From NCBI RefSeq assembly GCF_003334335.1, contig NZ_QOWQ01000001.1: a DNA stretch of 64,000 bases; one strand, given 5' to 3'. A model generated the notes under the pieces. That model did no database searches and had not been told where the DNA came from. It worked only from the letters and a program-made list of their open reading frames with translations. Below, in pieces: positions 2,275 to 63,903 of the stretch. The translations under genes and the position numbers were made by a program. The DNA is from Escherichia coli (GTDB lineage: Bacteria; Pseudomonadota; Gammaproteobacteria; Enterobacterales; Enterobacteriaceae). How positions within the stretch are numbered: the stretch's first letter is position 1; the number at the start of each line of letters is the position of its first letter.

Positions 2275-3528
2275 ATGTCAGGATCCAACACTGCAATCAG
2301 CCGTCGTCGTTTACTGCAAGGCGCGGGTGCCATGTGGCTATTGAGCGTAAGTCAGGTCAGTCTGGCTGCGGTCAGCCAGGTCGTGGCGGTGCGCGTCTGG
2401 CCTGCGTCCAGCTACACCCGCGTGACGGTGGAATCAAATCGTCAGCTGAAATATAAGCAGTTCGCGTTGAGTAACCCTGAACGCGTGGTGGTGGATATCG
2501 AAGATGTAAACCTGAACTCGGTACTCAAGGGGATGGCGGCACAAATTCGTGCAGACGACCCGTTCATCAAGTCGGCGCGCGTCGGGCAATTTGACCCGCA
2601 AACCGTACGGATGGTTTTTGAATTAAAGCAAAACGTAAAACCGCAGCTGTTTGCCCTTGCGCCGGTCGCCGGGTTTAAAGAGCGTCTGGTGATGGACCTC
2701 TATCCGGCCAATGCACAGGATATGCAGGACCCGCTGCTGGCGCTGCTGGAGGATTACAACAAAGGCGACCTCGAAAAGCAGGTGCCGCCAGCGCAAAGTG
2801 GTCCACAACCGGGTAAAGCAGGGCGCGATCGTCCGATTGTCATTATGCTTGACCCTGGCCACGGTGGCGAAGACTCCGGTGCGGTGGGGAAATACAAAAC
2901 GCGCGAAAAAGATGTGGTATTGCAAATAGCTCGCCGTTTGCGCTCTCTGATCGAGAAAGAGGGCAATATGAAGGTGTACATGACGCGCAATGAAGACATC
3001 TTCATTCCATTGCAAGTGCGCGTAGCAAAAGCCCAGAAACAGCGTGCTGACCTGTTTGTCTCTATCCATGCCGACGCCTTTACCAGTCGTCAGCCGAGCG
3101 GTTCCTCTGTGTTTGCGCTCTCAACCAAAGGTGCAACCAGTACTGCGGCAAAATATCTGGCACAAACCCAGAACGCCTCGGACTTGATTGGTGGCGTGAG
3201 CAAAAGCGGTGACCGCTATGTCGACCACACCATGTTCGATATGGTACAGTCGCTGACCATTGCCGACAGCCTGAAGTTTGGTAAAGCGGTACTGAATAAG
3301 CTCGGTAAAATCAACAAGCTGCATAAAAATCAAGTTGAACAGGCCGGGTTTGCCGTACTAAAGGCACCAGATATTCCCTCCATTCTGGTCGAAACGGCGT
3401 TTATCAGTAACGTTGAGGAAGAGCGTAAACTGAAAACGGCGACTTTCCAGCAGGAAGTTGCGGAGTCTATTCTTGCGGGGATTAAAGCGTATTTTGCCGA
3501 TGGGGCGACGCTGGCGAGAAGGGGATGA
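2275..3528 (+). CDS. amiC: N-acetylmuramoyl-L-alanine amidase AmiC (Tat-exported)
   Basis: ORF 2185..3528; recognised start [23 protein letters not shown] with twin-arginine signal; amidase_3 domain (DPGHGGED). Confidence 0.9.
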
Positions 3529-3529
3529 T

Positions 3530-3558
3530 AAAAAGGCGCTGAATGGCGCTTTTTTATG
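3530..3558 (+). terminator. Rho-independent terminator downstream of amiC
   Basis: aaaaaggcgctgaatggcgcttttttat: GC stem (ggcgc/gcgcc) followed by a T-run directly after the amiC stop. Confidence 0.6.
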
Positions 3559-3601
3559 GGAGACCAGAAACAAAAAAACACCCGTTAGGGTGTTCAATAA
3601 T

Positions 3602-3678
<77 letters not shown>

Positions 3679-3887
3679 TCCGTGGATGCGCACTATACTC
3701 CGCTCGCGTTTTCATGCAACCTTTTTTTTACCCCGATCACGGATTTGGCATGATTTTGAACAAAAACAAATCACTAAAGCCTATTTTTTGTGCAAAATTT
3801 GCGTCAGGGAGAGGCTGCTCATTTCATTAAACGCGGCGGTTTGTTATCTTCGTTGCGCCTTATTTTTTAACCTGAAGAAGAGAACAA

Positions 3888-4984
3888 TGAAAGGACGTTG
3901 GGTAAAGTACCTTCTTATGGGCACGGTTGTGGCAATGCTTGCCGCCTGCTCTTCCAAACCAACCGATCGCGGACAGCAATATAAAGACGGGAAATTTACC
4001 CAGCCTTTCTCTCTGGTGAACCAGCCAGATGCCGTTGGCGCGCCGATTAACGCCGGTGATTTTGCCGAGCAAATTAACCATATCCGTAATTCGTCACCGC
4101 GTCTGTATGGCAACCAGAGTAATGTTTATAACGCGGTGCAAGAGTGGCTGCGCGCAGGCGGTGATACCCGCAATATGCGCCAGTTCGGCATTGATGCCTG
4201 GCAGATGGAAGGTGCCGACAACTATGGTAACGTGCAGTTTACCGGTTATTACACGCCGGTAATTCAGGCGCGCCATACCCGCCAGGGCGAGTTCCAGTAT
4301 CCTATTTACCGTATGCCGCCAAAACGTGGTCGTCTGCCGTCTCGTGCGGAGATCTACGCGGGGGCATTGAGTGATAAATATATTCTCGCTTACAGTAACT
4401 CCCTGATGGATAACTTCATTATGGATGTGCAGGGTAGTGGGTATATCGACTTTGGTGATGGCAGTCCGCTTAACTTTTTCAGCTATGCAGGGAAAAACGG
4501 TCATGCCTATCGCAGCATTGGTAAGGTGCTGATCGACCGTGGCGAAGTGAAAAAAGAAGATATGTCGATGCAGGCGATTCGTCACTGGGGCGAAACACAC
4601 AGTGAAGCCGAGGTTCGCGAGCTGCTGGAACAGAACCCGTCTTTCGTCTTCTTTAAACCGCAATCTTTTGCTCCGGTGAAAGGGGCAAGTGCGGTGCCGC
4701 TGGTTGGTCGCGCGTCAGTTGCCTCTGATCGTTCCATTATTCCGCCAGGTACTACCTTGCTGGCAGAAGTGCCGTTGCTGGATAATAACGGCAAATTTAA
4801 TGGTCAGTACGAACTGCGTCTGATGGTGGCGCTGGATGTCGGTGGTGCAATCAAAGGCCAACACTTCGATATCTATCAAGGGATCGGGCCGGAAGCCGGA
4901 CACCGCGCAGGTTGGTACAACCACTATGGACGTGTCTGGGTGCTGAAAACCGCCCCGGGCGCAGGTAACGTCTTTAGCGGCTGA
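3888..4984 (+). CDS. mltA: Membrane-bound lytic murein transglycosylase A (lipoprotein)
   Basis: Real start MKGRWVKYLLMGTVVAMLAACSS (lipobox LAAC) inside the longer artefactual ORF 3458..4984; 365 aa. Confidence 0.9.
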
Positions 4985-5067: not shown

Positions 5068-5175
5068 TTCATGCCGGATGCGGCGTGAACGCCTTATCCG
5101 GCCTACAAATCATGCAAATCCAAAATATTGCAGGAGTTATGTAGGCCTGATAAGCGTAGCGCATCAGGCATTTAT
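5068..5175. repeat. REP (repetitive extragenic palindrome) pair, BIME-like
   Basis: gccggatgcggcgtgaacgccttatccggcctaca and inverted tgtaggcctgataagcgtagcgcatcaggca between mltA and tcdA. Confidence 0.75.
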
Positions 5176-8163: not shown

Positions 8164-8369
8164 AAAAAAAAGCACCGCAATTAGGCGGTGCTACATTAAT
8201 CACTATGGACAGACAGGGTAAATGTACAGGAAGTGAAAAAAGGTAGCTTTGCTACCATGGTCTGAATCGCAGACCAATTGCAAACACAACAACACAACAT
8301 CACAACCGTAAGCCAAAAGTTCACCAGAACACGCATTCCGATAAAACTTTTCGTTCCGGCTCAGGAAGT
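8164..8369 (-). ncRNA. gcvB: GcvB small regulatory RNA (Hfq-dependent), divergent from gcvA
   Basis: Reverse complement reads ACTTCCTGAGCCGGAACGAAAAGTTTTATCGGAATGCGTGTTCTGGTGAACTTTTGGCTTACGGTTGTGATGTTGTGTTGTTGTG...GCACCGCCTAATTGCGGTGCTTTTTTTT; G/U-rich target-binding region and terminal hairpin with U-run. Confidence 0.85.
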
Positions 8370-15513: not shown

Positions 15514-16830
15514 TCAGTTAGTTGCCGTTTGAGAACGGAAACGGGCAAAGATAAAGATGACCGCGAAGCAGAGTGCGGGGATCAGTTCAGCAGTGGGGAT
15601 GTTGCCCGCCGCGTCACTGACAAAACCCATGACCGGAGTGACAATACCGCCGCCAATAATGGTCATAACGATGAAGGACGAACCATATTTGGTGTCCTGG
15701 CCGAGATTCTTAATGCCCAGCGAGAAGATTGTTGGGTACTGAATCGACATAAAGGCGCTGCATAAAGTCAGGGCTATTAAGCCCACATGACCGCCAGCGA
15801 AGGCTGAGATCAGGCACAGTGCCATAGCGATTAATGCGTAGGCGGCCAGGACTTTGTGTGGTGCGAAGCGACTGATGAGCCAGGTACCGGTGAAACGACC
15901 AATAAAGAAGCACACCATGGTTCCGGTTAAATAGTTAGCGGCAAAGCCTGCAGTCATACCTGGAATTTCTTCTACAGCGTAGCGAATCAAATAGCTCCAG
16001 CAGGCCGTTTGTGCGCCGACATAGCAGAATTGCGCTAATACCGCCCAGCGCCAGTGGCGAATACGCGCCAGGCGAGAAAGCGATGCGGAGAACGATCCTT
16101 GTTTGGCGTCACTGTGATTATCACTCTGCAATGCCGGGAATTTCGTCAGCATGATCAGCAGGGCGACCAGTAACACGATAGCCACGATGATCATATAAGG
16201 TGTCTGTACCGATAATACCAGGCTGTGTTTATACGCACTCAATTGCTCTGGAGACATTTTATCGAGAACGTCTTGCGATTGATGTGGCACGTTAGACAAA
16301 ATAAGACTTTGCCCAAAGACAACCGCGATAATTGCGCCAAACGAGTTAAATGTTTGCGCAAGATTTAAGCGGAAGTGACCACTACTTTCCGGCCCTAATA
16401 CCGTAACAAAAGGGTTTGCGGCAGTTTCCAGACAACCTAATCCGGCTGCAATAATAAATAGGCCAACTAAAAATAAGGTGTAGTTCATTATTTCTGCGGC
16501 GGGCCAGAATAATGCAGCACCCAAGGCATATAAAAATAACCCGGTAATAATCCCTGCTTTATAACTGAGTTTTTTCATCAATATCCCAGCAGGGATTGGG
16601 ATAATGAAATAACCAAAGTAAAAGGCCGATTGGATCAGGCCAGCCTGGAAATTTGTCAGCGTAAAAGCCTGCTGGAATTGAGGTAATAAAATGTCGTTAA
16701 GGTTATTGGCTACCGCCCAAAGAAAAAACAGTGAGCACAGCAGCGCGAATGGAATAATGTAACTTCTGCTTTGCCCTGCATCTTTATCTACCGCACGGTA
16801 ACTCTGCGTTTGTATTGATGTGTTTCCCAT
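15514..16830 (-). CDS. fucP: L-fucose:H+ symporter (MFS)
   Basis: 438 aa, multi-TM, MGNTSIQTQSYRAVDKDAGQSRSYIIPFALLCSLFFLWAVANNLNDILLPQFQ. Confidence 0.9.
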   Translation of the reverse strand: MGNTSIQTQSYRAVDKDAGQSRSYIIPFALLCSLFFLWAVANNLNDILLPQFQQAFTLTNFQAGLIQSAFYFGYFIIPIPAGILMKKLSYKAGIITGLFLYALGAALFWPAAEIMNYTLFLVGLFIIAAGLGCLETAANPFVTVLGPESSGHFRLNLAQTFNSFGAIIAVVFGQSLILSNVPHQSQDVLDKMSPEQLSAYKHSLVLSVQTPYMIIVAIVLLVALLIMLTKFPALQSDNHSDAKQGSFSASLSRLARIRHWRWAVLAQFCYVGAQTACWSYLIRYAVEEIPGMTAGFAANYLTGTMVCFFIGRFTGTWLISRFAPHKVLAAYALIAMALCLISAFAGGHVGLIALTLCSAFMSIQYPTIFSLGIKNLGQDTKYGSSFIVMTIIGGGIVTPVMGFVSDAAGNIPTAELIPALCFAVIFIFARFRSQTATN

Positions 16831-17376
16831 AGCATCCTCTTAGGTTCAGAAGCTTAAGCACGTAATCGGTTATGTTTTCAAAAGTGCAAAACCAGCGAGT
16901 TCGGGCTTCATATCAGTGAATATTTGCCTGTCTGAAATGAACTCATGGATTCATTTTCAAATAAAAAACGCTCTGTAATATGACGGCGGTCACACTTATT
17001 AGCTAGAAGGTGACTTTATGTGACTACCATCACTTTAATAATCGAAATTTCATGCCCGTTTCAGAAAATAAATCATAAAAAACACAAATCAGATGACCGT
17101 ATTAATTGTTTGTGCCGAAAACGGTCATTCCGGGCTTGGAGGAATAGAAAAATGACCGTTTTGATAAATATTTTTAAGAGCGGTCATTTTTAATGGGGTT
17201 ATAAAAAGAGAACTTGCAGTTATTTACTGTGATTAGTTGAACCAGGTCACAAAATATAAGCTTGTGAATTTCTTTCTTGTTAATCAGGAAGAAGATGGTG
17301 GGTAATTAAACGGCTAATTCAATAGTGTGAAAGGAACAACATTATTGCCCTGTTTTGAATCAGAGAGAGGTAGCTA

Positions 17377-26540: not shown

Positions 26541-26907
26541 GTCGACAGGGAGTCAGACAACGAAGTGAACATCAGGATGATGACACTTCTGCAGGACACA
26601 CCAGGATGGTGTTTCAGGGAAAGGCTTCTGGATGAAGCGAAGAGGATGACGCAGGACGCGTTAAAGGACACCTCCAGGATGGAGAATGAGAACCGGTCAG
26701 GATGATTCGGTGGGTCAGGAAGGCCAGGGACACTTCAGGATGAAGTATCACATCGGGGTGGTGTGAGCAGGAAGCAATAGTTCAGGATGAACGATTGGCC
26801 GCAAGGCCAGAGGAAAAGTTGTCAAGGATGAGCAGGGAGCAACAAAAGTAGCTGGAATGCTGCGAAACGAACCGGGAGCGCTGTGAATACAGTGCTCCCT
26901 TTTTTTA
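26541..26907 (+). ncRNA. csrB: CsrB regulatory RNA (CsrA-sequestering)
   Basis: About 367 nt with no long ORF; many CAGGA(U)G / AGGA hairpin-loop motifs (caggatgatg, accaggatggtg, tccaggatggag, tcaggatgattc, ttcaggatgaag, ttcaggatgaac, aaggatgagc); ends in terminator gggagcgctgtgaatacagtgctccc + T7. Confidence 0.9.
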
Positions 26908-26951
26908 TTCCTGCTATCCTTCGCGGCAGTTTTTCTTATTGAGGTTGCTTT

Positions 26952-43108: not shown

Positions 43109-44422
<1,314 letters not shown>

Positions 44423-44441
44423 GACTGACTTTATCTGATTT

Positions 44442-44472
44442 AAAAATGCCAGCCTCCGGGCTGGCATTTTTT
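44442..44472. terminator. Rho-independent terminator between convergent eno and ygcG (likely bidirectional)
   Basis: aaaaatgccagcc tccg ggctggcattttttat: 10-bp stem flanked by an A-run and a T-run. Confidence 0.7.
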
Positions 44473-44481
44473 ATGGTTGAG

Positions 44482-45354
44482 TTACCAGCGGCCGGATGCG
44501 CCGCCACCTCCAGAAGAACCGCCCCCGCCGCTAAATCCGCCGCTATCTGAGCCTCCAGCGGAACCGCTGTTGTCTGAATGATAACTTCTACCAGATGCTC
44601 TTTTCTGAAGTACACATAAACAGGTAAAGACCATAAATATGGTGAAAGTAAAAAAGAAGGAAAATACAGCAATGGAAAAAATTTTATCGGAGAACAGGAA
44701 TAAATCTAAAAGATAGATTGCTGAAATACAGACTCCACTTTTACATGCGCGACAAAAATTACTGCCTTGATGAAAAAACCAGAAAGGGAAGAACATCACT
44801 GCAAATACCCAAAAAATAGCAAAGTAATAATGATCACTGGAAGACGCTGATTCACTTTCTGAAGGATTAGTCGGATATTGGTGTTGTGAAGTGAGTTGGT
44901 TATTCAAAGCGTTTATAGCTAGCTCTAATCCCTTAGCTAATTTTTGTTGTTTAAATGCGGGTATCATGTTGCTACGGATGATATCTCCAGCCAGAGCATC
45001 GGTTACCTTTTCTTCCAGCCCATAACCTACCTGGATGCGGACAGTGCGATCCGACCAGGCAACAACGATCAGTATCCCATCATTACGTTTGGCATCTCCT
45101 AAACGCCAATTGTCAAAAACTCTTGTAGCATATTGTTCAATTGTCTCGTCTTTGGTTGTGGGAACAATTAATACGGCAATTTGCACTTGGGTATTATTGA
45201 AAATAGATTCTAACTTGTGCGTCAGTTCTTTCTTTTCTTGTGAGTTTAAGCTACTCGTAAGATCCGTAACTTGTTGCTGTAATTGTGGGACAATAGTTGG
45301 TTGGGCTGCAACAAAGGAACATACGAAAGTGAACATTAGTATGAAATAGCGCAT
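44482..45354 (-). CDS. ygcG: TPM-domain membrane protein YgcG with glycine-rich C-terminal tail
   Basis: ORF 44482..45423; probable start [18 protein letters not shown] (signal peptide) at 45354; internal TM segment; C-terminus [24 protein letters not shown]; AT-rich coding sequence. Confidence 0.75.
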
Positions 45355-45646
45355 TATAAATTTCTCATTAAATCTGGATAAATAAATTGACGGCGGCATC
45401 GGTAATTTTATATTCGTTATCATTAAAAACTAATACAGAAAAAATAAATATAATTTTGGTGAATGTTTTGACATGATTAAATCCATTTTCTTTATTTTCT
45501 TCTGACATAATACGTTACTCCCTTTAATTATTAACGATATGTTTCGCATTTTTCTTTAAACCTGCCTGTAACAGAATGTTAATAAGACATGATTGTTGTG
45601 GCAGGATCTGCAATAATTAACAATTATCCACTTCACAGAGAATGCT

Positions 45647-46318
45647 ATGCAGTACCCGATTAACGAGATGTTCCAGACGCTGCAAGGTGAGGGTTACTTT
45701 ACCGGCGTTCCCGCCATTTTTATTCGTTTACAGGGATGCCCGGTTGGCTGTGCCTGGTGCGACACCAAACACACCTGGGAAAAGCTTGAGGATCGGGAAG
45801 TCTCCCTTTTCAGCATTCTGGCGAAGACCAAAGAGAGTGATAAGTGGGGGGCTGCGAGCAGTGAAGATTTGCTGGCTGTCATTGGTCGCCAGGGATACAC
45901 CGCGCGGCATGTGGTGATTACGGGTGGTGAGCCTTGCATTCATGATTTGCTGCCACTGACTGATCTGCTCGAAAAGAACGGTTTTAGCTGCCAGATCGAA
46001 ACCAGTGGTACTCATGAGGTACGCTGCACACCGAATACCTGGGTTACCGTATCGCCAAAGCTGAACATGCGCGGCGGCTATGAAGTGTTGTCACAGGCAC
46101 TGGAGCGAGCCAACGAAATCAAGCATCCAGTGGGGCGCGTACGCGATATTGAAGCACTGGATGAACTACTGGCAACGCTGACCGATGATAAACCGCGAGT
46201 CATTGCACTGCAGCCGATTAGCCAAAAGGATGATGCCACACGTTTGTGCATTGAAACCTGCATTGCGCGTAATTGGCGTTTGTCGATGCAAACACATAAA
46301 TATCTAAATATTGCCTGA
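45647..46318 (+). CDS. queE: 7-carboxy-7-deazaguanine synthase (radical SAM)
   Basis: 223 aa, MQYPINEMFQTLQGEGYFTGVPAIFIRLQGCPVGCAWCDTKHTW. Confidence 0.9.
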   Translation: MQYPINEMFQTLQGEGYFTGVPAIFIRLQGCPVGCAWCDTKHTWEKLEDREVSLFSILAKTKESDKWGAASSEDLLAVIGRQGYTARHVVITGGEPCIHDLLPLTDLLEKNGFSCQIETSGTHEVRCTPNTWVTVSPKLNMRGGYEVLSQALERANEIKHPVGRVRDIEALDELLATLTDDKPRVIALQPISQKDDATRLCIETCIARNWRLSMQTHKYLNIA

Positions 46319-46657
46319 TTAAACATTTATAAGCGTTATAAATGGGTGGAACCTGTAAAGACTTCTACTCATTTATATTGTTTGTCGCCTCTGAAAACTC
46401 CTCCATTTTACCCATCCAGGGCTAATCATTAGCATTCTCTACAAATTCTGTGGCATTAATTTTTCGCTGGAGTGAAAATTATTGCGGTAAAGTTTGGTAG
46501 ATTTTAGTTTGTATAGAGTTATTTTAAATATTTACCTTTTTAATCAATGGATTAAGTGCTCTTTAACATAATGGATGTGTTGTTTGTGTGATACTATAAA
46601 GTTGGTAGATTGTGACTGGCTTAAAAAATCATTAATTAATAATAGGTTATGTTTAGA

Positions 46658-47052
46658 GTGTTCCCCGCGCCAGCGGGGATAAACCGGCAAAAACCGGGCA
46701 ATCGCAAAAAGGCGTAATGTGTTCCCCGCGCCAGCGGGGATAAACCTGTGTTTGCGGCATTAACGCTCACCAGCATTTCGTGTTCCCCGCGCCAGCGGGG
46801 ATAAACCGACGTGGTCATGGGTGCTGCTGTTGCAGAGCCAGTGTTCCCCGCGCCAGCGGGGATAAACCGAGCAGATACACGGCTTTGTATTCCGTGCGCC
46901 CGTGTTCCCCGCGCCAGCGGGGATAAACCGAATAGCAATAGTCCATAGATTTGCGAAAACAGGTGTTCCCCGCGCCAGCGGGGATAAACCGGAGCCTGAC
47001 GAGACTACTGAGGCCGTTCTGTCGAGTTCCCCGCGCCAGCGGGGATAAACCA
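46658..47052 (+). CRISPR. Type I-E-style CRISPR array: 7 repeats of 29 bp, 6 spacers of 32 bp, AT-rich leader on the queE side
   Basis: Repeats GTGTTCCCCGCGCCAGCGGGGATAAACCG start at 46658, 46719, 46780, 46841, 46902, 46963 and 47024, strict 61-bp period; last repeat is the variant GAGTTCCCCGCGCCAGCGGGGATAAACCA; no cas genes in the window. Confidence 0.95.
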
Positions 47053-47522
47053 CCATATAACCCGTTATCTCTTTCTCAAGTTTTTATATTAGCAGTACTT
47101 GTAATAAGCAACATATCCACGTAACACCTCATGTTCAAAATAGTTCTCCATGCCAGAGAGGTTCACAATTATCGATACAAAAAATTAAATTTAATCAAAG
47201 TGTTATTTGTATGATTCTTAAATCGTTAAGAAATTTTAATCTATTATTTTTTTAATATTGAATTAATGCCTGTTAATTTTTTCTTTAGAATAACAGTATA
47301 TTTTTTAAGCTTGTTATTCATTGGTTAAGTAATAAATCTGGAAGTTTGTCTTTGTTTTGAGGCTAATGAGTGGTTTTACATAACCGCCTCTATACGCTGT
47401 TGATGAATAGTTCTTATGAATAAAGATATCCAGTTCATACTTTAAGTGAAAATTGATAAAGTGCGATTCGTATTGTCTTTTATTCTAAAGACATCGAGTG
47501 TAGTTAATATTCCTTGTAAAAA

Positions 47523-47645
47523 CAGGGATAAACCGAACTAGTTAAAGTTTTTATTATGTTCCCTGCATCAGCGGGGATAAACCGGACTTGTTATCATTTT
47601 TTAAGTTGTCGAACTTATGTTCCCCGCGTCAGCGGGGATAACCAT
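47523..47645 (+). CRISPR. Degenerate CRISPR remnant: 2 diverged repeats plus a truncated repeat
   Basis: cagggataaaccg (truncated), atgttccctgcatcagcggggataaaccg (47556-47584), 32-bp spacer gacttgttatcattttttaagttgtcgaactt, atgttccccgcgtcagcggggataaccat (47617-47645). Confidence 0.8.
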
Positions 47646-47690: not shown

Positions 47691-49169
47691 TTACGCATTC
47701 GACCAGCTCTGGATCGAATCCACATTCCCCAATTCCCCATGCATCACTTCATACGATTTTTTCAGGATCACATCAGTATGTTTGGTTAGGTCTTTGAAAA
47801 TGCCTTTATTCATCGCGTCGTAGCGTTTGGCATTGCTCTCAATCGGTATAAAGATATCTTTCACGCGAACCATGTTATCGACAGCCGTTGCGTAATCCGG
47901 GTATAGCCCCAGACCTACCGCTGTATTAATCGCTGCCCCCAGGCTTGCACAACCGTTAATGGCGTTACGTCGTGCCGGAAGGTTGAACACGTCGGCAAAA
48001 ATCTGCATAAACAGATCGCTGTTCGAACCGCCGCCAGTAATGATCACATGCTTCGCAAAGTGATTCATTTCATTACACATATTGTCGTAATTGTTCTTCA
48101 GCGTCAGCGCCACGCTTTCCAGTATCGAACGATATATCCATGCGTAATCCATGCTGGAATCAAAGCCGATCATAATCCCGCGTTTGTACGGTTCCCACGG
48201 ATTGGTCAGCCAGTCCAGCACCGTCATCAGACCATTACAGCCTGGCGGCACACAAGAAGCTTTTTTGTTGAGTAAATCTTCCGGTGAAAGATCCTGCGCC
48301 CTGGCATCCTGAATTAACGACTCGCCTAGCATGTCGCGCAGCCAGCTCACCGTCCACATGCCTTTGCGAATACCGTAACCTTCATACAGCAATGTTTGCG
48401 GAATAGAAGACATAATCGGCCAGTACGCTACTGGATCTTTCGGCAGTGCTTTGCCGTTCATCATCAATGCGATGTAAGTGCCAAGAGAAATTACCGCCGT
48501 TTCATCATCCAGTAATCCGGCCCCCAGAGCTTCTACCGGTTTATCACTGGTGGTACAAACAACCGGCAGTCCTGCCGGGAAATGTGTCGCCAGTGCGGCT
48601 TGTGGTGTGATATGTCCGAGGACGGTGCCAGGCATTTGCACATCAAACAGCATATGACGGGGGATATTAAACTTATCCATTACCGCAGCATCTTCGCTCC
48701 ATGCCCAGCTCTTATAATCCACCGGCCACTGACCAAAATAGTTGGCGATATTGTCTTTAAACTCGCCGGTTAAGCGATGCGTCAGATAACCCGAAAAAGA
48801 GGTGACATATGCCACGTCAGGGTTAGTGTGTTCGTAAGGGCGTGTAACGCGTGCATCCTGCCAGCTAATCAACGGCGCAGCAGGCGTGCCATCGGCTTTC
48901 AATAACGCACGGCAGCAACGGATGGATCCCAGACCAATACCGACAATATCTTCTTTATTCCCGGCAAACTGACTCATCAAATCGTGACCGGCAAAACATA
49001 ATGATGCCCATAAATCGTCGTCAGGATGTTCTGCAGTATCGGCATCTGGCGTGTGCATCGGCTGTAATAAGCCTTTGCCTTCGCAAACCACGTTACCTTC
49101 CAGATCGTACATCACCACTTTTGTGCTCTGACTTCCGCCATCAATCCCTATGATGTATTTTTTCGACAT
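47691..49169 (-). CDS. ygcE: FGGY-family carbohydrate kinase, substrate unknown
   Basis: 492 aa, MSKKYIIGIDGGSQSTKVVMYDLEGNVVCEG; FGGY N- and C-terminal domains. Confidence 0.85.
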   Translation of the reverse strand: MSKKYIIGIDGGSQSTKVVMYDLEGNVVCEGKGLLQPMHTPDADTAEHPDDDLWASLCFAGHDLMSQFAGNKEDIVGIGLGSIRCCRALLKADGTPAAPLISWQDARVTRPYEHTNPDVAYVTSFSGYLTHRLTGEFKDNIANYFGQWPVDYKSWAWSEDAAVMDKFNIPRHMLFDVQMPGTVLGHITPQAALATHFPAGLPVVCTTSDKPVEALGAGLLDDETAVISLGTYIALMMNGKALPKDPVAYWPIMSSIPQTLLYEGYGIRKGMWTVSWLRDMLGESLIQDARAQDLSPEDLLNKKASCVPPGCNGLMTVLDWLTNPWEPYKRGIMIGFDSSMDYAWIYRSILESVALTLKNNYDNMCNEMNHFAKHVIITGGGSNSDLFMQIFADVFNLPARRNAINGCASLGAAINTAVGLGLYPDYATAVDNMVRVKDIFIPIESNAKRYDAMNKGIFKDLTKHTDVILKKSYEVMHGELGNVDSIQSWSNA

Positions 49170-63486: not shown

Positions 63487-63652
63487 ATATTGCCGGATAA
63501 ATTAAACGCCTCTGTCAGAAATGATGGGGGCGTTTTTATTTTGCGAGCAGTATTCCTGATTTTAAACGTGAACGCCGCTGGAAGAATTATCAGGTATAGA
63601 ATGGCGTCGGGTGCTTGAGGCTGTCTGGCGTTAAGCATTCGCGAGGTTCCAG

Positions 63653-63757
63653 ATGGACAAAAGCCCCAGGCGATATTTCTATCAACCTGAGGCTTACGTT
63701 CGAACCCAAACAATTCGAATGTTAGTCTCTTCTTTGCAGGGAGGCAAGACATGCTGA
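63653..63757 (+). CDS. Mok-like upstream coupling ORF (34 codons) overlapping the hok-like start
   Basis: atg at 63653 to tga at 63755-63757 ([34 protein letters not shown]); stop overlaps the hok-like ATG (acATGcTGA); arrangement typical of hok/sok loci. Confidence 0.4.
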
Positions 63758-63903
63758 CAAAATATGCCCTTGTGGCAATCATAGTGCTGTGTTTTACAGT
63801 ACTGGGATTCACGCTGATGGTAGGCGACTCGTTGTGTGAGTTGAGTATCAGAGAACGTGGTATGGAGTTTAAGGCAGTTCTCGCTTACGAATCGAAGAAG
63901 TAG
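63751..63903 (+). CDS. Hok-family small membrane toxin (50 aa), below the size cut-off of the ORF track
   Basis: [50 protein letters not shown]: N-terminal TM helix, conserved Cys plus C-terminal AYES(K) motif as in Hok/Gef; preceded by GGAGG at about 63741. Confidence 0.7.

Follow-up and report, generated by a model that had tools for sequence, protein, structure and literature searches.

The gap between eno and queE in the Escherichia coli chromosome segment analysed here, a single stretch of 64 kb that we call the window, very probably carries a small foreign insert at 44480–45555, a reduced LemA–TPM cassette that is AT-rich and bound by H-NS. A reading of this DNA as AT-rich, foreign and H-NS-bound has already been published; what is new here are the boundaries of the insert, its haplotypes, the lemA stump that it contains and the recombinant nature of ygcG. 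In the course of events that we propose, the Escherichia lineage would have acquired, at the eno–queE site, lemA followed by one to three tandem TPM genes. Decay would then have removed all of lemA but its promoter, 5′ UTR and first codons, a stump now read as the 46-aa YqcG, and a single TPM gene, the recombinant ygcG, would have remained after the reduction. We infer the direction of this change, from four genes to one, mainly from the long form that is common to E. albertii and E. whittamii.

Layout and base composition of the locus

The plus strand of the window has the gene order relA–mazEFG–pyrG–eno, a segment of the E. coli chromosome, and the features around ygcG are collected in Table 1. 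The genes eno and ygcG are convergent, with a terminator hairpin between them. This hairpin folds at −27.1 kcal/mol on the plus strand (z = −6.1) and at −20.3 kcal/mol on the minus strand (z = −4.9); a promoter and terminator scan, in which counts were not above those of shuffled sequences, overlooked it, and it was confirmed by folding. An Rfam search over the whole window gave no matches within 44–48 kb.

Table 1. Features of the eno–ygcE region, with positions counted in the window.
Feature	Position	Strand	Evidence or remark
eno	43124–44422	+	GC 0.503; left neighbour of the eno–queE gap
Bidirectional intrinsic terminator, common to eno and ygcG	44442–44471	both	13-bp stem, U-runs on both strands
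ygcG, 290 aa	44482–45354	−	RefSeq CDS, starts MRYF; ORF extends to 45423
Last 17 codons of ygcG, family-wide C-terminal motif	44485–44535	−	Conservation and composition
Phe-rich hydrophobic region with Cys-containing loop (codons 176–250)	44605–44829	−	Hydropathy, GC 0.329
TPM domain (residues 29–152)	44899–45270	−	Pfam PF04536
Recombination breakpoint zone, ygcG codons ~60–80	45115–45177	−	Identity jump against L004 gene 4; at a conserved motif
K-12-type-specific segment	45181–45440	−	ygcG codons 1–58, 13-nt spacer and yqcG codons 23–46
yqcG, 46 aa, small-protein gene	45368–45508	−	RefSeq annotation
Divergent queE / yqcG–ygcG control region	45509–45646	.	Haplotype and outgroup alignment, published binding
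queE (ygcF), 672 bp	45647–46318	+	GC 0.516; core gene
AT-rich leader of the type I-E CRISPR-II array	46319–46657	+	GC 0.304; immediately 5′ of repeat 1, oriented as the repeat is transcribed
CRISPR-II array, 7 repeats and 6 spacers	46658–47052	+	61-nt periodicity; repeat GTGTTCCCCGCGCCAGCGGGGATAAACCG
Second AT-rich stretch, then degenerate repeats	47055–47645	+	GC 0.277
ygcE	47691–49169	−	Annotation

A sequence-only reading of this DNA had described ygcG and its upstream region as markedly more AT-rich than the flanking eno and queE, and calculation bears this out. The gene has a GC content of 0.411 (z = −4.1; 0.382 without its tail) and a GC3 of 0.357 (z = −4.2), both about 4 sd below the 45 other genes of the window, for which the means are 0.520 (sd 0.027) for GC and 0.556 (sd 0.047) for GC3. 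Codon use is atypical as well, with a z of −2.8 against window genes on a leave-one-out index of codon typicality built from those genes. Sliding along the 64 kb, the eno–queE gap as a whole (44423–45646; GC 0.380) is the minimum over all 1224-bp windows, whose mean GC is 0.507 (sd 0.038). The upstream region is AT-rich too, and both the yqcG stretch (GC 0.234) and the yqcG–queE spacer (0.326) are below the gap average, but it holds an annotated gene, yqcG. Within ygcG, AT content peaks in the codons of the Phe-rich membrane region, and the tail codons are a local GC-rich exception (0.629).

The eno–queE junction across Enterobacteriaceae

For comparison we used the loci of 80 Enterobacteriaceae species, anchored on QueE and taken from the best 80 QueE matches; the set lacks Salmonella and E. 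fergusonii, and it was the syntenic site that was examined, not whole genomes. In every locus that reaches far enough, eno lies upstream of queE, and the QueE proteins are 86–100% identical, with a gap between the two genes that ranges from 121 bp to 5.2 kb. The junction is empty (121–235 bp) in nine genera, represented by Citrobacter sedlakii, Pseudescherichia vulneris, Shimwellia, Pluralibacter, Mangrovibacter, Pseudocitrobacter and others. On one side, the gaps in these loci match the eno terminator, and on the other, window positions 45551/45587–45641, the last 55–90 nt before queE; the E. coli insert therefore corresponds to ~44480–45555, or ~1.1 kb. The terminator shared by eno and ygcG is the left edge of the insert and is retained in all haplotypes, and the empty-site outgroups have an analogous eno terminator at the matching position.

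Most other genera carry unrelated cargo at this site, including an RpiR/PTS/epimerase set, a 369-aa reductase-like gene, a permease, a dehydrogenase and AT-rich clusters of small genes. Among the 80 species, LemA and TPM genes at this position are limited to E. coli, E. albertii, E. whittamii and Klebsiella spallanzanii. In K. spallanzanii, a 22-repeat array whose I-E repeat is identical to that of the window lies inside the eno–queE gap and abuts TPM–TPM–lemA. The eno–queE junction is a hotspot at which DNA is replaceable by recombination across the Enterobacteriaceae, and its clean empty sites are what define the insert. Horizontal acquisition of ygcG, raised as a possibility from the sequence, fits this distribution, with the junction empty in nine genera, filled by other cargo in most, and present in at least three very different versions in E. 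coli. At this site, and within the 80-species set, ygcG is patchy (Escherichia and one Klebsiella) and not universal. The insert has none of the classical features of a genomic island (an integrase, a tRNA, an IS element or direct repeats at its flanks); ygcG and yqcG are its only ORFs, and the sole tRNA of the window is at 3602–3678. It does have features of xenogeneic DNA, namely a GC of 0.380 against a window mean of 0.507 and a patchy distribution of what occupies the site.

Haplotypes within E. coli and the mosaic structure of ygcG

Within E. coli, the locus occurs in several forms. The K-12 type, with yqcG and ygcG, is the type of the window and is found in 3924–3949 of 5426 E. coli genomes, or ~72% of complete E. 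coli genomes. The O157:H7/CFT073 type is a 3.8-kb version with lemA and three TPM genes (1103/5426 genomes), and the L083 type has lemA, a truncated TPM gene and an unrelated ORF (340/5426). The GTDB representative E. coli genome, which has the L004 haplotype, carries lemA–TPM1–TPM3–'gene 4'. Intact lemA is present in ~27% of complete genomes, accompanied by one to three TPM genes, and each full-length TPM copy at the locus encodes a signal peptide, a TPM domain, membrane helices and a conserved C-terminal motif. The haplotypes are alike at their flanks only. On one side, this likeness covers the terminator and the tail-coding 130 nt (94% identity), and on the other the queE-proximal 207 nt (83–84%), of which the first 91 nt are ~99% identical and the DNA beyond ~70%.

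The identity of ygcG to gene 4 of L004 changes abruptly along the gene, from 52–58% over codons 1–60 to 83% over codons 61–80 and 97–100% over codons 81–220. Codons ~64–290 as a whole have 92–100% nucleotide identity to that gene, and codons 1–60 only 50–62% to any paralogue; the Phe-rich region, which is specific to the K-12-type paralogue, has 92–100% identity to gene 4 and 28–50% to the other paralogues. Judged by this identity profile, the K-12-type ygcG is a recombinant of paralogues, in which the first 60 and the last 230 codons have different histories. The 260 nt of the K-12-type-specific segment match nothing in the O157 or L004 haplotypes at the nucleotide level and have no significant similarity to lemA. 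The same segment is present in 3949 of 5426 E. coli genomes, at 92.8–100% identity and in its own context only, and it lies under ygcG (and yqcG where this is annotated) in all matches listed. Since dN/dS between ygcG alleles is 0.31–0.38, ygcG is under weak but real purifying selection; for eno and queE, dN is 0.

yqcG as a lemA stump

A stretch of 207 nt at the 5′ end of yqcG is 83–84% identical to the 5′ end of lemA and its upstream DNA (E = 1e-58), and the homology to lemA takes in the yqcG promoter, leader and first 22 codons. At the protein level, YqcG residues 14–41 are colinear with LemA residues 3–30, with 9 of 2000 shuffles reaching the score, and the hydrophobic core KIIFIF of YqcG is the LemA signal anchor, with the lipobox lost. 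The 3′ half of yqcG has no significant similarity to lemA at either the protein or the DNA level. From these alignments, the 5′ end of yqcG appears to derive from a truncated lemA, an origin for which we found no published statement in the literature.

Among the divergent K-12-type alleles (92–95% identity), a 1-nt indel shifts the yqcG start to the lemA-equivalent ATG and gives a 35-aa ORF, alleles that the annotation pipeline labels 'frameshifted'. Between yqcG alleles there are 6 non-synonymous differences and 1 synonymous one (pN/pS ~1.6), too few for a test, with no constraint apparent. In RefSeq, the product of yqcG carries the name 'cell envelope stress response protein', and a lemA-stump origin affects how this 'stress protein' annotation of YqcG is to be read. 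It may also bear on the 'essential' call of yqcG in TraDIS, which we suspect reflects protection of the DNA from insertions by H-NS; the Goodall TraDIS paper contains no discussion of H-NS.

Of 6 distant metagenomic or genomic contexts of tail-bearing TPM proteins, 5 have LemA (PF04011) encoded directly upstream of the TPM gene, and some of them also contain a second TPM gene. LemA–TPM is a widespread conserved cassette, and the K-12-type locus is therefore a decayed version of it: an intact lemA directly upstream of a TPM gene is present in other E. coli haplotypes and absent in the window, where the 46-codon yqcG stump takes its place.

The YgcG protein and its C-terminal motif

That ygcG encodes a TPM-domain membrane protein, as had been read from the translation, is supported by both Pfam and hydropathy. 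The TPM_phosphatase model (PF04536) matches residues 29–152 of YgcG with E = 2.5e-37 over model positions 1–124 of 125. Hydropathy shows a signal peptide and peaks at residues 176–194, ~203–221 and 225–243, or approximately three membrane helices. From this arrangement, the TPM domain is predicted to be periplasmic, and topology rules would place the Gly-rich C-terminus in the cytoplasm. An NCBIfam search with YgcG gave only sub-threshold matches to Psb32 and MamQ, and no specific family name.

The Gly/Ser-rich end of YgcG is present in the ORF translation exactly as the sequence-only reading quoted it, but the view of this tail as unusual does not hold, as it is the best-conserved motif of the family. 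A HMMER search of 1.84 billion cluster representatives returned 21,094 relatives of YgcG, and tail statistics were taken from 142 distant representatives (≤56% identity) among the matches listed. Of these 142, 132 end in W, 117 have a Gly-rich stretch in their last 25 residues and 111 contain GGGG-x(1-3)-GGGG, frequencies that are inflated because the query contained the tail and the figures come from the top-scoring matches. The consensus of the tail is F-S-G-G-G-G-S-[F/S]-G-G-G-G-A-S-G-x-W, and its conservation is 3.66 bits per position, compared with 2.53 for the TPM domain, in the same 142 representatives among the matches listed. YgcG itself has the features of the YgcG-type subgroup: signal peptide, TPM domain, membrane segment(s) and GGGG-x-x-GGGG-A-S-G-x-W. 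The YgcG group corresponds to COG1512. All full-length paralogues at the eno–queE locus in other E. coli strains have the same C-terminal ending, and the tail-coding DNA has 83–94% nucleotide identity across paralogues and haplotypes. In divergent ygcG alleles the motif is nearly intact, with a single Gly-to-Asp change in one of them (L085). As a terminal motif, the Gly-rich tail stands out for its sharp conservation within a very large TPM family. By analogy with other TPM proteins, YgcG most likely faces the periplasm as an auxiliary or maintenance factor of the envelope.

A role in defence, suggested by the CRISPR neighbourhood, was considered and dropped. PADLOC defence models gave no meaningful match to YgcG, YqcG, LemA or TPM2, the best being DrmB at E = 0.0075 with no qualifying stretch.

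H-NS binding and the control of queE

Silencing by H-NS had been suggested from AT-richness, and published tables do report H-NS binding at the queE/ygcG spacer (PMC3661553; PMC3946193). Table 1 of Panyukov and Ozoline (2013; PMC3661553) lists two 'promoter islands' here, queE/ygcG (2903475, 338 bp) and ygcE/queE (2901670, 347 bp), and by coordinate mapping these correspond to window positions 45275–45612 and 47071–47417. In the ChIP data compiled in that paper, the queE/ygcG island is H-NS-bound with mark 'K' (legend: Kahramanoglou and Oshima), and the ygcE/queE island, in the AT-rich stretch between two CRISPR arrays, is H-NS-bound by all studies considered. The same source gives queE/ygcG as predicted foreign by Nakamura, Lawrence and Price, and ygcE/queE by Price only (PMC3661553). 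For the queE/yqcG spacer, an H-NS site was identified by genomic SELEX, together with RpoD promoters (PMC3946193, Table 1), and a sigma-S ChIP peak and an RpoS SELEX peak have been published on the queE/ygcG spacer.

H-NS binds the insert on account of its AT content, which far exceeds that of the host genome. Most likely, H-NS keeps yqcG–ygcG at low expression until stress signals override it; binding is published, and silencing is what we infer from it. Candidate signals for overriding H-NS would be sigma-S, PhoP and envelope stress. Given the published sigma-S ChIP peak and the envelope-stress name in RefSeq, the yqcG–ygcG locus appears to be transcribed and regulated.

Regulation of the neighbouring queE also involves this DNA. 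In gel shifts, PhoP-P bound both the 300 bp that precede queE and the adjoining 300 bp, which lie inside ygcG, and deletion of yqcG in a ΔmgrB strain strongly raises queE expression (PMC4974570). This rise in queE expression may be an indirect hint of H-NS silencing. A PhoP-box pattern has one site with two mismatches at 45557–45573, but with 21 matches in the window compared with 14 expected, this site is not evidence. The queE-proximal ~60–95 nt of the control region are ancestral, and the remainder came with the insert. We tentatively raise the idea, which is possible but rather doubtful, that the decayed insert has been co-opted as a regulatory element of queE. If so, an H-NS nucleation and PhoP-binding region, formed by the AT-rich lemA stump (yqcG) together with the start of ygcG, would set the strength of QueE induction under PhoQ/PhoP stimulation. 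QueE blocks cell division when over-produced. The validated small protein YqcG would, on this idea, be a by-product ORF of the truncated lemA, not a conserved protein. Since only ~60–95 nt upstream of queE are ancestral and the DNA beyond them differs by haplotype, strains would differ in queE control and in stress-induced filamentation. This matters as queE links PhoQ/PhoP signalling to cell division, and its regulatory DNA is largely insert-borne and strain-variable.

Alternative explanations

The sequence-only reading had placed ygcG beside the CRISPR leader and had joined the two, together with the region upstream of ygcG, in one AT-rich block. The leader is AT-rich as claimed (Table 1), but the 672-bp queE intervenes, and ygcG and the leader each occur alone elsewhere. 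It is very unlikely that one AT-rich, H-NS-silenced island brought in ygcG, the region upstream of it, and the leader and array of CRISPR-II, even with both AT-rich stretches reported as H-NS-bound, conserved blocks common to the leaders, and an array that adjoins TPM–TPM–lemA in the K. spallanzanii gap. The intervening queE is a core gene with an unremarkable GC (0.516), and wherever a species locus extends to eno, queE and eno are neighbours. Several genera that lack LemA/TPM have I-E arrays downstream of queE (loci L056, L058, L073, L076 and others), and the LemA/TPM loci of the E. coli representative and E. whittamii (L004 and L005) have no repeats. What the window leader has in common with the Klebsiella leader are generic I-E leader blocks and nothing more, and because this is only the generic I-E pattern, the likeness is no argument for a common origin. 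Variation on one side of queE is independent of that on the other, and the one-block reading is largely refuted.

A foreign origin of the insert has also to be weighed against a native one, in which ygcG would be ancestral to Enterobacteriaceae and AT-rich only as a gene for a Phe/Ile/Lys-rich, weakly expressed membrane protein. In favour of this, the Phe-rich membrane region is the most AT-rich coding part of the gene (GC 0.329), and ygcG in some form is present in 5414 of 5426 E. coli genomes. However, GC3 depends little on amino-acid content and is 4.2 sd low, most genera have either nothing or unrelated genes at the site, and very different haplotypes occupy it within E. coli; we consider a native origin almost certainly wrong. 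Another explanation accepts the insert as foreign and sees the K-12-type yqcG–ygcG as a dead relic, non-functional and en route to loss, with AT-richness that is partly due to mutational decay. The conserved partner lemA is destroyed, the few differences among yqcG alleles are mostly amino-acid changes (pN/pS ~1.6, 7 differences) together with a start-shifting indel, codon use in ygcG is poor, and its dN/dS is high for E. coli when dN is 0 in eno and queE. Even so, dN/dS remains under 1 at 0.31–0.38, the K-12-type matches listed have an intact annotated ygcG CDS, in a haplotype found in ~3900 genomes, and the tail motif is almost fully kept in divergent alleles. The sigma-S ChIP peak at the queE/ygcG spacer and the stress-response name of the yqcG product in RefSeq also speak against a relic, which we regard as unlikely. 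A reduced foreign cassette that retains a constrained ygcG is the reading that we prefer.

Comparison with known systems

Among the H-NS-bound xenogeneic 'promoter islands' of E. coli K-12, the window locus is one of the listed cases and does not differ from them in kind. Among the small proteins of E. coli K-12, where yqcG is annotated, its alleles are without sign of protein-level constraint; yqcG is given as a 2008 discovery in the passage of PMC5821084 that cites it as a K-12 small protein.

The closest solved structures to the TPM domain of YgcG are BA41 (5ANP; E = 9e-24), 7TBR and 2KW7. BA41, from Bizionia argentinensis, has the same order as YgcG, with a TPM domain, a hydrophobic segment and a Gly-rich end (GGGGASGGW), but differs in that the domains are ~35–40% identical and BA41 has a single membrane segment. 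The founding TPM proteins, Psb32, TLP18.3 and MOLO-1, have the same domain as YgcG, and the NCBIfam Psb32 model matches it with E = 3.5e-10; YgcG is not a Psb32 orthologue, because the score of 39.9 is far under the 160-bit cut-off. The context differs as well, as E. coli has no photosystem or receptor setting of the kind in which these proteins work. Relatives with this domain range from PSII-repair and receptor-auxiliary proteins to enzymes with weak phosphatase or ATPase activity, and a recent preprint states that TPM domains have no consensus function. The known system closest to the locus as a whole is the LemA–TPM two-gene membrane module (Pfam PF04011 and PF04536). The O157-type and other E. 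coli haplotypes follow it, with lemA and then TPM genes that share the same C-terminal motif, whereas in the window haplotype LemA is reduced to a 5′ stump and a single recombinant TPM gene encodes an atypical membrane region with three helices and a Cys-containing loop.

Probable haplotype decay and allelic divergence at the eno-queE junction

On account of its near lack of transposon insertions, yqcG (45368-45508) is listed as possibly essential in a TraDIS study (PMC5821084). Because GC content is only 0.23 here and H-NS binding to this site has been published, this scarcity seems more likely to reflect protection against insertion than essentiality; H-NS is not discussed in the TraDIS paper.

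The O157:H7 haplotype, which carries lemA and three TPM-domain genes related to ygcG, is in decay too, since of these three the TPM gene next to lemA has been cut to 224 aa, with a 233-nt non-coding gap after it (L001:2512-3419, the O157:H7 locus), whereas its counterpart in L004, the locus of the GTDB representative E. coli genome, is full length and retains the Gly-rich tail. In one E. coli strain (NZ_AP027854.1 949061-951837), an IS1 element lies in the K-12-type ygcG region, and the nucleotide match to this genome is broken by it into three pieces.

Divergence is also seen in queE. Between the window and the 95%-type E. coli haplotype (comparison with loci L084 and L085), dS is ~0.27 in queE and 0.043 in eno, the QueE protein is identical, and a 250-nt stretch in the 3' half of queE (45950-46200) has just 88% identity to L084/L085. 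Together, these values suggest that this 3' patch, which adjoins the variable sites, is an imported or very old allele. A PhoP-box-like direct repeat occurs 74-90 nt before the start of queE, on the margin of a stretch with ~99% identity between E. coli haplotypes; matches to this pattern show no enrichment across the window (21 vs. 14 expected).

Features of the window and of comparison loci from other genomes
Feature	Position	Strand	Basis or context
PhoP-box-like direct repeat TGTTACAGGCAGGTTTA, 2 mismatches	45557-45573	minus	pattern match
tRNA-Met, CAT anticodon	3602-3678	minus	sole tRNA of window
Membrane-transporter ORF, 438 aa	15514-16830	minus	5' part within low-GC region 16050-17376
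CsrB	26550-26909		Rfam, gathering threshold
GcvB	8164-8369		Rfam, gathering threshold
sok antitoxin RNA (CssrC)	63609-63766		Rfam, gathering threshold
ES036 (CssrF)	5106-5148		Rfam, gathering threshold
AT-rich small-ORF cluster (Citrobacter, Pseudocitrobacter)	L007:5978-7839, L065:6089-7885, L010:3001-4465		eno-queE junction
Type I-E CRISPR array, 22 repeats (Klebsiella spallanzanii)	L022:4152-5461		between eno and TPM-TPM-lemA-queE

Other features of the window

The four Rfam matches are all far from the ygcG insert. The longest-ORF call at 3500-4984 overlaps tRNA-Met on the opposite strand, so the true start of this ORF is probably further downstream. The region with the second-lowest GC of the window (~0.40) covers the 5' part of the transporter ORF, which we take to be fucP, together with the divergent spacer of 546 bp that separates this ORF from its neighbour.

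Other cargo at the junction

The Citrobacter and Pseudocitrobacter cluster is very AT-rich (GC 0.36), with a 190-257-aa ORF surrounded by repeated membrane-like ORFs of ~104-115 aa, and has no relation to LemA/TPM. In K. spallanzanii, queE is immediately followed by ygcE, and the CRISPR array, which lies within the eno-queE gap, borders directly on a TPM gene at that gene's 3' end. This is the only case we saw in which an array and LemA-TPM genes are contiguous, and the repeat of this array is exactly that of E. coli.
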